DNA of 64,000 bases from Escherichia coli (GTDB taxonomy: Bacteria > Pseudomonadota > Gammaproteobacteria > Enterobacterales > Enterobacteriaceae). The first letter of the stretch is position 1. Each line of letters opens with the position of its first letter. The notes below the pieces were generated by a model that saw only the letters and a program-made list of their open reading frames with translations, did no database searches and was not told the origin of the DNA. The stretch lies in assembly GCF_024223415.1 (NCBI RefSeq), contig NZ_CP100503.1. One strand, given 5' to 3'. The translations under genes and the position numbers were made by a program. Positions 8,367 through 58,380 of the stretch are shown here, one piece after another.

Positions 8367-8383
8367 ATTGCTCTAATAATTCC
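8367..8383 (+). promoter_or_regulatory. C1-operator-like motif ATTGCTCTAATAATTCC
   Basis: Match to the P1 C1 operator consensus ATTGCTCTAATAAATTT as I recall it; inverted partner at about 8416-8432. Confidence 0.45.
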
Positions 8384-8391
8384 ATATTTTT

Positions 8392-8419
8392 AAAACGTGA
8401 TGTACACTCATCACGTTTT
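8392..8419. terminator. Hairpin AAAACGTGATG-loop-CATCACGTTTT flanked by A-run and T-run (bidirectional terminator candidate)
   Basis: 11-bp perfect stem, 6-nt loop, T-run after; lies just downstream of 7664..8365. Confidence 0.55.
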
Positions 8420-8666
8420 TTATTAGAGCAATCCAAAAGGTGCACTATGTGGCCATTCCGACGGAAATATCACTACTGGCTGATCGCCTTTGTTACGCCG
8501 ACCGGCGGTATCAGGCATGTCATCACCAAGTATCGCAACAAGAGACTCACCTTAGCCAGAATTTTACAGGCTGCCATAGGTGAGGGACTGGATACAAATT
8601 GCGTAGTCCTTCCTCCTTCATACTTAGGAAAAATGACCGAAGCACAAGCTAATACGGAACTTTGAA

Positions 8667-9929
8667 ATGAGCACTTCAGCACAAAACCAATCAATCGAAA
8701 ATGTATCTATCCCTGATGTCCTGAATGCCGGTATCCCGGCCATTATCCAGAACATCCGGGCCGCGCAACGCCGCGTTAGTTGTGATGACCTCACAGCACG
8801 TTTTTTTGATAATGCGGTTCAGTCAGCGGAGATGCTTCACGCACAGCTTATTGATGTTTATAACGCAGAAGCTGATAGCCATAACTCCCTGGTAGATGCA
8901 GCTGAAAATATGCAGTTGGATCTCGGTCTGAAGGGTAAAGAAATTGAAGAGCTTCAGCTGCAAATTGAACATTTGAAACGCCAGCAACAGGACGCGATCG
9001 ACGATGCGACGCATGACGCCAACCAGCGTGCTGATAATGCCGAACGTATAAGCATTGAGCTGGAAACAAAACTCAATGAAATGACCGCGATGGTTGAACT
9101 GCGGAACTCACAGATTTCAACGCTAAAATCTCAATATAAAGAGATCATGAAACTTGATCCTTTTAACCTTGAGAAACGCTATAACAAAGCTAAAAGCGAG
9201 CGACAGGAACTGCGTAAGCAGGTCGCCGACCTTAACCAACAGCTCAAAAAAACTATTAAAGATGCAAGCGAAGCGCGCGTGGCATTTGCTAATAAAAAAG
9301 CAGAGGTTACCGCGCTGGTTAATGAGAATGCCAAATTTGCGACGCTCAAGAAGGAAATGTATGGCATTACTGAGCGCCGTTTCCCTGCAAGCAAACGTCA
9401 TCCGACGTTAGGGCAAATCTCCTTCTTCCCGCGCCTCCTGGCTTATGGGATCTCATCGCCTAAAGAGTTCAATAACGAGCGTCCTTATATCGTTTCTAAG
9501 CTGGACTTTGCTTATCAGTTCTGCTGCGACATGGGCTATGCCATTGATATCCGGATCAACGAATGGTTGATGCCAAACTTCCAGCCGTTGGCCATTTTCC
9601 GCGAGTTCCAGCCGGAAGGTTGGGTAGAGTTCTTCCATGAATTGATCTGTAAAGCGATGGAAAGCCGCCGCCCGGAACTGGTCCGTCGAGTTGAGTGGGC
9701 GCAAGAGGTTATGTTGGCAGAGGCAGAGCTGCCGTTCGAACCGGAATTTATTGATGATCTGGCAACTAAAGGGCTGCATACCCTGTTTGATGTGGTTACC
9801 CGCCGTCATGAGCAGTTGGTTGTCGAATTGGGTTTAGAGGAAACTGCGGCAAGAAGACTTCTCGATGTTTGCTATGCACGTAGCGATGCATGGGAAAAAG
9901 AGAACGGCGGCACTATTTACGTTCGCTGA
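8667..9929 (+). CDS. Hypothetical protein (420 aa) with coiled-coil N-terminal half
   Basis: ORF; heptad-like E/K/Q/L-rich region aa 60-200. Confidence 0.45.
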   Translation: MSTSAQNQSIENVSIPDVLNAGIPAIIQNIRAAQRRVSCDDLTARFFDNAVQSAEMLHAQLIDVYNAEADSHNSLVDAAENMQLDLGLKGKEIEELQLQIEHLKRQQQDAIDDATHDANQRADNAERISIELETKLNEMTAMVELRNSQISTLKSQYKEIMKLDPFNLEKRYNKAKSERQELRKQVADLNQQLKKTIKDASEARVAFANKKAEVTALVNENAKFATLKKEMYGITERRFPASKRHPTLGQISFFPRLLAYGISSPKEFNNERPYIVSKLDFAYQFCCDMGYAIDIRINEWLMPNFQPLAIFREFQPEGWVEFFHELICKAMESRRPELVRRVEWAQEVMLAEAELPFEPEFIDDLATKGLHTLFDVVTRRHEQLVVELGLEETAARRLLDVCYARSDAWEKENGGTIYVR

Positions 9930-10001
9930 TAGTTACTGTGTCACTTTTAATGCTGGTGGAGTGCGCCCACCAGCATTTTTTTCGTCCAATGAGGAGGGCA
10001 T

Positions 10002-10508
10002 TTGAGTATTTTCAATAAACACGCACACCAGGAACGTCCGTACATCGTCATAGTAGATATTGATGGGACGATATCAGAGGCAACGGAAGACAGGCTGCAT
10101 TTACTTCCACCATCTGGCAAAGGTGCATTAACAGAGCACTGGAACGAGTTTAACCTTGCCTGTGACACTGATGCTCCCATCACTCCAGTTATTGATATGG
10201 TGCGCCAGTTGTCCAGCATTTACACGCTCTGGTTTGTAACCGGGCGCTGTGAGATAGCCAGGGATAAAACACGAGCCTGGTTGCGTAAGCACGTAACAAA
10301 TGGGGCTGAGCCTTTGCTATCTATGCGTCCTGCCACCGATGACAGAAATGACGGCCCTGCAAAGATTGATCTCCTGAAGAAAATTGGTCTAAGTAAAATT
10401 GCGTTCGCGCTGGAAGATAAGATTGAAGTGGCGCGTGTTTTCAGGAGTCACGGCGTACTTACGTTAATGGTCAGGGAATATGAAAATGCGCTTCTTCATC
10501 AACAATAA
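10002..10508 (+). CDS. HAD-superfamily phosphatase-like protein (168 aa)
   Basis: Motif I VDIDGT, motif II LWFVTGR, later K...ED; resembles phage polynucleotide-kinase-phosphatase / acid-phosphatase (pap-like) domains. Confidence 0.5.
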   Translation: MSIFNKHAHQERPYIVIVDIDGTISEATEDRLHLLPPSGKGALTEHWNEFNLACDTDAPITPVIDMVRQLSSIYTLWFVTGRCEIARDKTRAWLRKHVTNGAEPLLSMRPATDDRNDGPAKIDLLKKIGLSKIAFALEDKIEVARVFRSHGVLTLMVREYENALLHQQ

Positions 10509-56573: not shown

Positions 56574-56906
56574 TTAGTTACCGCTGATAGCGCGGTTGTA
56601 ATCATTAACGTTGCGATTCTTCCTGTTAATCCCCTTCAGCATCGTTTCTGTATCAAGGATATAGGCTGGCAGATCATCAAAATATTCACTGCTAAATTCT
56701 GGCATCCTGCACATAAATGCACTTTTGGGGGCAGGGTGGTTAACCTTTGTCGGCGTCGGCGTTAAATTCGCTGATCGACTCCCGGAGCAACCGCTGAGTG
56801 TCAGCAGGAATACGCTGGCGAACATTACCCGCCGCAACCAGTTGTTTCTGAACTTCAGCTTTTCGTTCCATTTGCCTGTCAGCATACTTGGCTTGTTCTG
56901 ATTCAT
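56574..56906 (-). CDS. Lipoprotein, o-spanin (Rz1)-like / mlp-like (start likely internal MFASVFLLTLSGC)
   Basis: Lipobox LSGC followed by Pro-rich segment; 5' part overlaps the 3' end of 56740..57189 in another frame. Confidence 0.5.
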   Translation of the reverse strand: MNQNKPSMLTGKWNEKLKFRNNWLRRVMFASVFLLTLSGCSGSRSANLTPTPTKVNHPAPKSAFMCRMPEFSSEYFDDLPAYILDTETMLKGINRKNRNVNDYNRAISGN

Positions 56907-57189
56907 TTTTCACTTCCTGGCTGTGAAAATGTTGCTCTGCTTTGTTCATCGTCTCAATGGCCTGGTTAAGATCCATTATTGACTTATCACGTTCCTTAAC
57001 AGCCTGATCAAGACTGCCAATTTTCTCCATGGCTTGCTTTAGCTGATGACGTTCCCATGCAAACCCAGCACCAACAAGTGCGCAAATCAGAACAAGAACA
57101 CCAGTAGCAGCAAGTTTCTCCTTCAAAGACAAAGCTGTTTTTAACGTAGAAAAGAATGACATGTCTTCCTCCTGAAGAAAAATTATCAA
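56740..57189 (-). CDS. i-spanin (Rz)-like protein: N-terminal TM helix plus coiled coil (149 aa)
   Basis: TM segment ATGVLVLICALVGAGFAW then charged helical region; overlapped by lipoprotein gene. Confidence 0.45.
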   Translation of the reverse strand: MIIFLQEEDMSFFSTLKTALSLKEKLAATGVLVLICALVGAGFAWERHQLKQAMEKIGSLDQAVKERDKSIMDLNQAIETMNKAEQHFHSQEVKNESEQAKYADRQMERKAEVQKQLVAAGNVRQRIPADTQRLLRESISEFNADADKG

Positions 57190-57201
57190 TGAAGTCCTTT
57201 G

Positions 57202-58047
57202 TTACTGTGCCGCTTTGTTTAATTCATCAAGAACAGAATCAGGAACCAAAGCGGCAACTGCGCTGGCTGTGCTGGCCTTATTTGCTGATGCTTCCGCAAG
57301 CGCGGTACCGATAGCATGGTTATAAGCAGTTATGGCTACGTTGGCGCTTTCATTCGCTCGTTCATACTGCTGTTGTAACGCAGTTGTGGGCGCTGTTGTC
57401 TGGTTGAAAACAACCCCAAACTGTTCAGTTGCTACTTTCAGAGATTCAATTTGCTCTTCTGTTAGTGCTGGTGGGGGAATGGCAGTGCCGCCGCCTGAAC
57501 CAGAGCCTGACGAGCTTCCTGAACCAGTGTTAAGGGTCTGGTTAATCTCCCCCATAGCAGCGACTAAACTTGATGTATTAAGCGCGTTAACAGCGTCCTC
57601 AAGCGATTTAGTAATATTCACATCACCAATGGCAATAGAGATCAGCAGTTCTGAAACTTCTCGCTCATTAGCACGGCAGTAAACATCCCAACCAATATCG
57701 AGTTGAAGCAGCATTGACAGATCTGCATAACCAGCCAACAGGTCCGCGTGCTTAGTTGCCAGTTCTCCAATGTTCGTTAAGCCGGTTGTGGTTGTTCTGA
57801 TCGTTGAAACATAGCTGGTAATAGTGTCGGGATAGACAATTGTATCCAGAATTAATCCGGTCAATTCTTCTGCAAGCTGTTTTGCCGTGTTAGCACTGTT
57901 TCGTGCCGATGTTATGGCACCAGGTGTTTTCATCCCACCGGCAGCGGCCAATTTTTTATATGCGGATAACTGGTAGTCTTTTTCCAGCATGATATCTCCT
58001 AACTTACCTGAACCAGGCCGTCTCCTGACGCTACGGTAGAGCCGCAT
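57202..58047 (-). CDS. Hypothetical protein with Gly/Ser-rich linker (281 aa; start probably internal)
   Basis: ORF; GSGSSSGSGSGGG linker. Confidence 0.4.
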   Translation of the reverse strand: MRLYRSVRRRPGSGKLGDIMLEKDYQLSAYKKLAAAGGMKTPGAITSARNSANTAKQLAEELTGLILDTIVYPDTITSYVSTIRTTTTGLTNIGELATKHADLLAGYADLSMLLQLDIGWDVYCRANEREVSELLISIAIGDVNITKSLEDAVNALNTSSLVAAMGEINQTLNTGSGSSSGSGSGGGTAIPPPALTEEQIESLKVATEQFGVVFNQTTAPTTALQQQYERANESANVAITAYNHAIGTALAEASANKASTASAVAALVPDSVLDELNKAAQ

Positions 58048-58283
58048 GAAACAGGGTCACCAACGCATACGACCCCTTTACCATTGACGGTAAACCATGC
58101 CCTGGTTGATATAGCTTGCCCACCGTGCGTACTGTTTCCATCGGTATGCTGTGCATATTGCTTACCATCAACTAACACTTCGACTCCGTTGACTTTAAGT
58201 AGTGGTTCACTCTCTACAGGAGGCCTGGATGGGAATCCTCCGTGCCCCGAACAAATGCTGTCTTTTGTTGCAATACTTGCCAC
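57999..58283 (-). CDS. Small Gly/Cys-containing protein (94 aa), possibly PAAR-like
   Basis: ORF; weak resemblance only. Confidence 0.3.
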   Translation of the reverse strand: MASIATKDSICSGHGGFPSRPPVESEPLLKVNGVEVLVDGKQYAQHTDGNSTHGGQAISTRAWFTVNGKGVVCVGDPVSCGSTVASGDGLVQVS

Positions 58284-58363
58284 GTCATCACCAATTATTT
58301 GCTCTGGTTTTTGTTATTTTAACTTAGGTTACTTGTGGTCTAAATGGCGTTAACTATTGCATA

Positions 58364-58380
58364 ATTGCTCTAATAAATAT
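58364..58380 (+). promoter_or_regulatory. C1-operator-like motif ATTGCTCTAATAAATAT upstream of uhr-hrdC-dmt
   Basis: 16/17 consensus match. Confidence 0.55.

Follow-up and report, generated by a model that had tools for sequence, protein, structure and literature searches.

Dispersed repeats in a rearranged P1-like phage-plasmid of Escherichia coli are very probably operators of its C1 repressor

A P1-like element and its immunity repressor

The stretch of DNA analysed here, 64,000 nucleotides of Escherichia coli contig NZ_CP100503.1 (RefSeq assembly GCF_024223415.1; hereafter the window), carries dispersed copies of a 17-bp repeat whose likely role as binding sites of a phage repressor, C1, is the subject of this work. 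Judged from its sequence, the window is a rearranged P1-like (Punavirus) phage-plasmid: blocks 95-98.5% identical to phage P1 (AF234172) span most of it in P1 order, with replacements, and coordinate 1 of P1 (lox) corresponds to window position 25408. The repressor gene itself and two genes for modulators of the repressor are present:

23837-24688 (-), c1 repressor gene, 283 aa; product 98.6% identical to P1 C1 (tblastn)
24799-25008 (-), coi, C1 inactivator, 69 aa, intact; open reading frame (ORF) of P1 length, collinear with P1 94193-94402
34460-34708 (-), lxc (bof), co-repressor strengthening C1 binding, 82 aa, intact; ORF collinear with P1 9750-9998

The binding of C1 to its operators, its enhancement by Lxc and its release by Coi or Ant are known for P1 (PMC8546580, PMC8198154). 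Homologs of C1 are tagged PF27008 (Phage_P7_repressor_C1) in the protein database; a Pfam scan of the C1 protein gave no match, and a search by sequence found no relative in the PDB.

The repeats match the C1 operator consensus

The asymmetric 17-bp consensus published for C1, which has 22 operators dispersed over P1 (PMC8546580), is identical to the repeat of the window, ATTGCTCTAATAAATTT. With up to 3 mismatches allowed, this 17-mer is matched 15 times in the 64-kb window, compared to 0.20 times expected from dinucleotide-preserving shuffles, and none of 100 shuffles reached 15 or more matches. The 9-nt core TGCTCTAAT occurs exactly 14 times (0.58 expected). A variant core, TGCACTAAT, is found three times (4749-, 24789- and 31465+; 0.62 expected), which taken alone is marginal, and all three matches coincide with operator positions of P1; a related variant had already been seen at these places, near 4745(-), 24782(-) and 31461, in an earlier, sequence-only reading of the window made without database searches.

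That reading had reported dispersed copies of the motif and taken them for C1 operators. All sixteen of its sites are present, with offsets of 0-2 nt, two of them in reduced form: at 44679 the motif starts as described but breaks off after 11 nt of the operator (ATTGCTCTAAT, followed by CTGGAG), and the site at 29201 exists but matches chiefly in its core (ATTGCTCTAATTCTTTG). Three sites had been overlooked, at 8416(-), 24955(-) and, in degenerate form, 5650(-). The search by position weight matrix (PWM) that it had proposed as a check was run with a matrix trained solely on operators annotated in the P1 GenBank record (range of the training set, 15-27.6 bits), and returned 16 sites of at least 19 bits. 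Weak additional matches at 21345(-), 60174, 25857 and 10383 are all located within ORFs and look like chance; the one at 21345(-), which is also among the matches to the 17-mer, lies inside pacB.

The accepted sites are largely intergenic. ATG-started ORFs 100 aa or longer cover 85% of the window, yet seventeen of the 19 sites lie wholly outside them; the exceptions are the site at 10508, which overlaps an ORF by its first base only, and the truncated site at 44679, which lies inside one.

Positional correspondence with the operators of P1

The P1 record AF234172 contains 20 monovalent features annotated as "protein_bind: phage repressor C1", to which window sites were assigned by collinearity. 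Fifteen sites are collinear with annotated P1 operators and the majority of these are identical letter by letter, while four sites have no P1 counterpart. The fifteen are:

4743-4759 (-), O26 (former Op82), ATTGCACTAATAATTTT; 24.8 bits; identical to P1 78528-78544
5650-5666 (-), degenerate Oppp (former Op83), TATGTACTAATTAATTT, with C5 of the core changed to T; 13.9 bits; P1 79435-79451
8367-8383 (+), OpmgRa (Op86a); 22.8 bits; identical to P1 82152-82168
8416-8432 (-), OpmgRb (Op86b), without T tract; 21.6 bits; P1 82201-82217
10508-10524 (+), OpmgT (Op88); 26.4 bits; P1 84293-84309
18831-18847 (+), Olpa (Op94); 19.6 bits; P1 89904-89920
24783-24799 (-), Oc1a, autoregulatory, at the c1 promoter; 23.2 bits; P1 94177-94193
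24955-24971 (-), Oc1c (Op99c), inside coi; 15.2 bits; identical to P1 94349-94365
25248-25264 (-), Oc1d (Op99d), at promoter P1coi; 25.7 bits; P1 94641-94657
25331-25347 (+), Oc1e (Op99e), at P4cre, with higBA and then cre downstream; 21.6 bits; P1 94724-94740
29677-29693 (+), Oref (Op2a); 20.5 bits; P1 1962-1978
31463-31479 (+), Omat (Op2b), TATGCACTAATAAATAT, upstream of mat; 19.6 bits; P1 2628-2645; P1 homology restarts exactly here
42914-42930 (+), OrepL (Op53), over the -10 of PkilA, controlling kilA-repL (lytic replication); 24.1 bits; P1 49810-49826
44679-44689 (+), truncated Orlf (Op55), first 11 nt left at a recombination junction; identified by comparison with P1, the homology block ending at 44689
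58364-58380 (+), Odmt (Op68), upstream of uhr-hrdC-dmt; 26.2 bits; P1 65145-65161

The gene for the late-promoter activator, lpa (18918-19370), starts 71 nt downstream of Olpa, and control of this gene by an operator is known P1 logic. Oppp is oriented against its flanking genes, and O26 lies 25 bp from the late promoter LP26 (4700-4718). For Omat, the P1 record gives strand -, which yields the reverse complement of the consensus; the consensus orientation is +, toward mat. The placement of sigma-70 promoters was taken from the P1 annotation for the orthologous sites, our own scan being too noisy for this purpose, and from homology to Oc4/P51 together with a crude consensus scan for the new sites.

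Compared with the operators known in P1 and P7 (Oref, Omat, Ossb, Oc4, OrepL, Orlf, Odmt, Oban, O26, Oppp, OpmgRa/b, OpmgT, Olpa, Oc1a-e), those of the window share the 17-bp consensus, a near-identical repressor, synteny, and the presence of coi and lxc. They differ in that Ossb and Oc4 are missing, because the window lacks P1 15.3-48.6 kb; in that Orlf is truncated and Oppp weakened; and in that Oban would fall past the end of the window.

Conservation in diverged relatives

Cronobacter phage JK004 encodes a C1 with 77% identity; searched with the matrix, it gave about 18 sites scoring 16 bits or more, some of them upstream of the homologs of c1, lpa, ssb, dmt, pmgR and pmgT. Two metagenomic P1-like contigs, with C1 proteins only 54-59% identical, show the same core in sites that precede c1 and lpa. 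Sites of this kind at orthologous genes in diverged relatives show that motif, repressor and placement travel together. A scan of IMG/VR with a C1 profile returned only relatives at least 99% identical, and therefore informed on the diversity of cassettes (see below), not on divergence.

A predicted C1 regulon

The enrichment of the motif, its orthology to P1 operators, its intergenic placement, the presence of c1, coi and lxc, and its conservation in relatives together make it very probable that the repeats are operators of the P1-type C1 repressor encoded on the same replicon, as the sequence-only reading had proposed; for binding and repression as such, we rely on published work on P1. By analogy, C1 produced from the c1 gene of the window would bind each asymmetric 17-bp site (ATTGCTCTAATAAATTT), and these sites would overlap or abut sigma-70 promoters of early and lytic operons, so that lpa, kilA-repL, dmt, pmgR, mat, the c4-icd-ant cassettes and coi/c1 would come under C1 control. 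Occupied operators would keep these promoters shut and the plasmid prophage quiescent, with silencing of lpa expected to silence all late genes. Lxc would tighten the binding of C1, and Coi and Ant proteins would release it.

Several observations weigh against this assignment or limit it. The sites at 10508, 29677 and 44679 no longer face their P1 target genes, and some sites may thus be non-functional relics; the earlier statement that every copy precedes a gene start in the same orientation is correct for most sites, with these three as exceptions. The PWM scores of the sites at 5650, 24955 and 45802 (see below) fall within the range of shuffled sequence. An AlphaFold model of C1, built on an alignment of 12 sequences in search of tandem DNA-binding domains, has a mean predicted local distance difference test score (pLDDT) of 60.5 and a predicted template modelling score (pTM) of 0.42, and is too poor to provide a structural account of how an asymmetric site of 17-25 bp is read. 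Rearrangement of the element by insertion sequences (IS) would explain why some operators lack their P1 targets, why one is halved and why four sites are additional to those of P1.

Additional operators and antirepressor cassettes

Of the four sites lacking an annotated P1 counterpart, three head extra c4-icd-ant cassettes and one is found upstream of c8; a further weak site, at 45802, is listed after them:

22137-22153 (+), operator heading cassette A, between pacB and c1; 21.9 bits
22329-22416, c4-like RNA, followed by an Ash/Icd-like ORF and ant (22689-23804), all (+): cassette A; Rfam C4 and isrK, ANT domain
31386-31402 (-), operator heading cassette B, perfect consensus; 27.6 bits
31370-31386 (+), decayed inverted second half of the cassette B operator; 10.5 bits
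31201-31116, c4, followed by an icd-like ORF (31068-30847) and ant (30850-29786), all (-): cassette B; Rfam C4 and a1b1, ANT domain
32753-32785 (+), operator heading cassette C, perfect consensus, homologous to P1 Oc4 (Op51); 27.6 bits
32769-32785 (-), decayed inverted second operator of cassette C; 11.1 bits
32954-33039, c4, and 33305-34417, ant, both (+): cassette C; 76% identity to P1 48142-48940
29201-29217 (+), operator-like site 16 nt upstream of c8 (29234-29545); 19.1 bits; aligned to P1 1485-1501
45802-45818 (-), weak operator-like site of uncertain status, AATGTTCTAATAAACTA, intergenic; 13.5 bits

Rfam, Pfam and alignment to P1 immI indicate that cassettes A (22137-23804, +), B (31402-29786, -) and C (32753-34417, +) are complete, each with operator, c4 targets, C4 antisense RNA, icd-like ORF and ANT-domain protein. 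They resemble P1 immI (Oc4-P51-c4 RNA-icd-ant1/2) in the order of their parts, namely the operator, the c4 targets a1/b1, the C4 RNA, a2/b2, the icd-like ORF and the ANT protein. They differ from it in number, three being present in the window, in their non-canonical locations, and in that the complementarity between c4 and target is particular to each cassette. Extra ant insertions at these three places have been reported for P1-like plasmids (PMC6906374), and operators of the type heading cassette A are found in about 37 of 80 P1-like loci of IMG/VR. Just upstream of the cassette A C4 RNA, Rfam also detects an isrK-like RNA (22228-22305, +). The downstream extension given by the sequence-only reading, TTGATTTTTTAGG, corresponds to the decayed inverted second operator of cassette C.

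Within each cassette, the recognition elements of c4 and their mRNA targets co-vary. Element b' reads CACTAAC in P1, CACAAGT in cassette B and CGTAAGT in cassette C; element a' reads CTGTCAA in both P1 and cassette B and CTGCTAA in cassette C. Such co-variation implies three predicted antisense immunities that are mutually orthogonal.

The canonical immI locus, by comparison, has lost Oc4, c4 and icd through an IS200/IS605-associated deletion (40011-42835), in which tnpB (40484-41716, +) adjoins an intact ant1-like ORF (41753-42835, +) in the same orientation. With the immI operator and c4 gone and the ant1-like ORF beside an IS element, this antirepressor may have escaped control by both C1 and c4.

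At the site upstream of c8, P1 has a mismatch in the core (TGCTATAAT; A at operator position 7, where the window has C) and lacks an annotation, whereas the core is intact in 57 of 80 related IMG/VR loci. On the evidence of these sequences, most P1-like elements may have c8 under the control of C1, with laboratory P1 as an exception. The weak site at 45802 lies directly upstream of an ORF not found in P1 (45154-45786, 210 aa) that has no Pfam match.

A T-rich extension beyond the 17-bp consensus

Many copies of the motif share a downstream extension rich in T, as the sequence-only reading had described. Counted from the operator start, at least five of the six coordinates 20-25 are T in 11 of 18 window sites (background probability 0.011; binomial p = 1e-17), and the same coordinates are T-rich in 9 of 18 sites of phage JK004; mirror-image upstream positions carry no T signal in the window or in JK004. 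A profile of 63 non-redundant operator contexts, drawn from P1, JK004, the two distant relatives and the 80 IMG/VR loci, gives 0.5-0.9 bit at each of coordinates 20-25 and a preference for purines at 26-28, with no conservation past coordinate 29. The extension falls outside the published 17-bp consensus, and the extended consensus consists of the 17-mer, two unconserved positions, T6 and purines. The very degenerate Oc1b annotated in P1 as overlapping Oc1a (about 24772-24788, +; P1 94166-94182) is nothing but Oc1a's own T-rich extension, seen from the opposite strand.

A clue to the origin of the extension comes from some relatives in which the immI-type operator is ATTGCTCTAATAAATTTGATTTATTAGAGCAAAT, a near-perfect palindrome of 34 bp made of two inverted 17-mers that overlap by 1 nt. 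The general extension fits the corresponding 33-bp register best, with a match of 0.44 versus a baseline of about 0.25 and 0.28 for a 28-bp register, but coordinate 23 is a misfit, being T where the 33-bp palindrome needs A. The 28-bp geometry of bivalent P1 operators was rejected as a source of the extension, its match outside the 17-mer (0.28) being at baseline. An inverted second operator at all sites was likewise rejected: no more than 2-3 sites score above 5 bits when the opposite strand is read, so that the full palindrome holds for immI-type operators only and elsewhere the T tract alone is common.

The T6 tract at coordinates 20-25 most likely belongs to the functional site, and as to its role we can only infer: it could represent a vestigial or weak inverted second half-site, an A-tract read or bent by C1 or C1-Lxc, or promoter sequence. 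We tentatively propose that monovalent operators are composites of about 28-33 bp, in which T6 and the purines would form the inner portion of a second, inverted operator that has degenerated (in 33-bp same-face geometry, unlike the 28-bp bivalent one) and would aid binding or bending by C1, a second C1 or C1-Lxc; under the same proposal, operators would also be preferred junctions for the exchange of immunity cassettes.

A promoter origin of the extension is an alternative, though a rather unlikely one. The extension would then be no repressor site but a -35 hexamer (TTGATT/TTGTTT) and a T-rich spacer, trailing operators that cover the -35. In favour of this, coordinates 15-22 of the operator are occupied by the annotated -35 hexamer in P1 at Oc4, Odmt, OpmgT, Oc1e, Olpa and Oc1a, and our own scan finds TTGATT or TTGATC at coordinates 16-22 for cassettes B and C, OpmgT and Oc1e. 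However, the T tract is also present at OrepL, which covers the -10, at Omat, which precedes the -35 by about 20 bp, and at O26 and Oppp, which are oriented against neighbouring genes. It is furthermore kept in relatives with C1 only 54-77% identical, and some relatives have a complete inverted operator in its place.

Rearrangements and replaced modules

The element is an IS-rearranged relative of P1. Segment 15.3-48.6 kb of P1, with most tail, lysis and head-processing genes as well as ssb, sim and c4, is missing from the window: the IS200/IS605 copy at 40011-41760 joins a truncated darB (P1 15301) to ant1 (P1 48650), so that some 33 kb encoding morphogenesis and lysis functions in P1 is absent in between. 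The exact darB/IS junction was not found in complete E. coli genomes of RefSeq. Three IS copies and two replacement modules were delineated:

27406-29095, 40011-41760 and 62291-64000, IS200/IS605 (tnpA and tnpB)
10761-16796 (-), type I restriction-modification locus (hsdR, 1038 aa, EcoR124 type; hsdS; hsdM), in place of P1 pmgT through humD
25662-26327 (+), higB-like toxin and helix-turn-helix (HTH) antitoxin (higBA), in place of cra, between Oc1e/P4cre and cre; HigB and HTH domains

The third IS200/IS605 copy, running from 62291 to the window end, interrupts dmt. The IncI plasmid NZ_CP128966.1 has only the IS element in common with the window and is otherwise unrelated. In the segment replacing rlfA/rlfB, Rfam detects a sok antitoxin RNA (hok/sok-type module; 44984-45158, +).

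These events account for the orphaned operators. At OpmgT, homology to P1 stops at 10685 and the target pmgT is substituted by the inverted hsdRSM locus; operator and promoter now point at the 3' end of hsdR. Next to Orlf, rlfA has been substituted. At Oref, P1 homology stops at 29783, ref is substituted by the inverted cassette B, and the Pref promoters face the 3' end of the cassette B ant gene; convergent or antisense transcription is possible there (29677-29800).

Breakpoints at operators, and late promoters

Three of the 21 breakpoints of P1 homology lie within 5 nt of an operator (22133, 31464 and 44689; permutation p of about 4e-4, the test being post hoc). This coincidence, together with Orlf being cut exactly in mid-site, hints that operators act as, or mark, junctions for the exchange of modules. 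An insertion in plasmid pJIE250-3 has been reported at a cluster of ATTG repeats, P1 1957-1982 (PMC6906374), and this cluster corresponds to the position of Oref. That the conserved sites are chiefly junctions of short homology serving module exchange among P1-like elements, with repression secondary, nevertheless appears improbable: operators stand at operon heads, which are natural module borders, and the coincidence may merely reflect selection for intact modules. The post hoc test moreover involves three cases, and a junction function would be compatible with C1 binding.

Least credible of all, to the point of being negligible, is the reading that the motif marks start sites of Lpa-dependent late promoters and not C1 sites, an outcome that the sequence-only reading had itself named as contrary to its proposal. 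In its favour, a late promoter (4700-4718) is found 25 bp from O26 (4743-4759), and P1 has the same arrangement. The pattern common to the eleven late promoters annotated in P1, however, is AAGTGACTT-N4-TANNAT, a sequence with no relation to the repeat, and the repeats lack the -22 box AAGTGACTT with a -10 of the form TANNNT 4 nt later. Late-promoter-like sites of the window (2995-, 4700-, 19402+ and 51293-) do not coincide with operators, the sole pattern match that overlaps one (29196-29214) is loose and overlaps the 29201 site by chance, and the genes that follow the motif are early ones (lpa, kilA, c1, dmt) and not those of morphogenesis operons. Late-promoter motif and repeat thus differ in both sequence and location.

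Relation to known operators and significance

Operators of the lambda CI type resemble those of P1 in being repressor sites placed over early promoters and maintaining lysogeny. In lambda they are symmetric, dimer-bound and grouped at two loci. P1 has asymmetric operators, spread across the entire replicon as a regulon (PMC8546580). Within P1 itself, the bivalent operators Oban (Op72ab) and Oc1ab (Op99ab) consist of two inverted 17-mers with a 6-bp overlap, 28 bp in total. The operators of cassettes B and C also possess a second, inverted and weaker copy, which is nearly perfect in relatives. Unlike in the bivalent type, however, the two 17-mers overlap by 1 nt only (33 bp), the distance between the cores is about 20 bp, compared with about 15 bp, and the second half has decayed in the window to 10-11 bits; the P1 arrangement is retained by Oc1a/Oc1b.

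The assignment of the repeats to C1 is textbook P1 biology, already known, and leaves the understanding of P1 immunity unchanged. As modest leads, the analysis provides the extended consensus, a palindromic origin at immI-type operators, and the coincidence of breakpoints with operators. The main value of the set of sites is for annotation: it defines the C1 regulon of a rearranged plasmid, with lpa, kilA-repL, dmt and three antirepressor cassettes still under predicted control, and displays the operators orphaned by rearrangement. The extended consensus would sharpen the prediction of operators in P1-like phage-plasmids, elements that commonly carry resistance genes.

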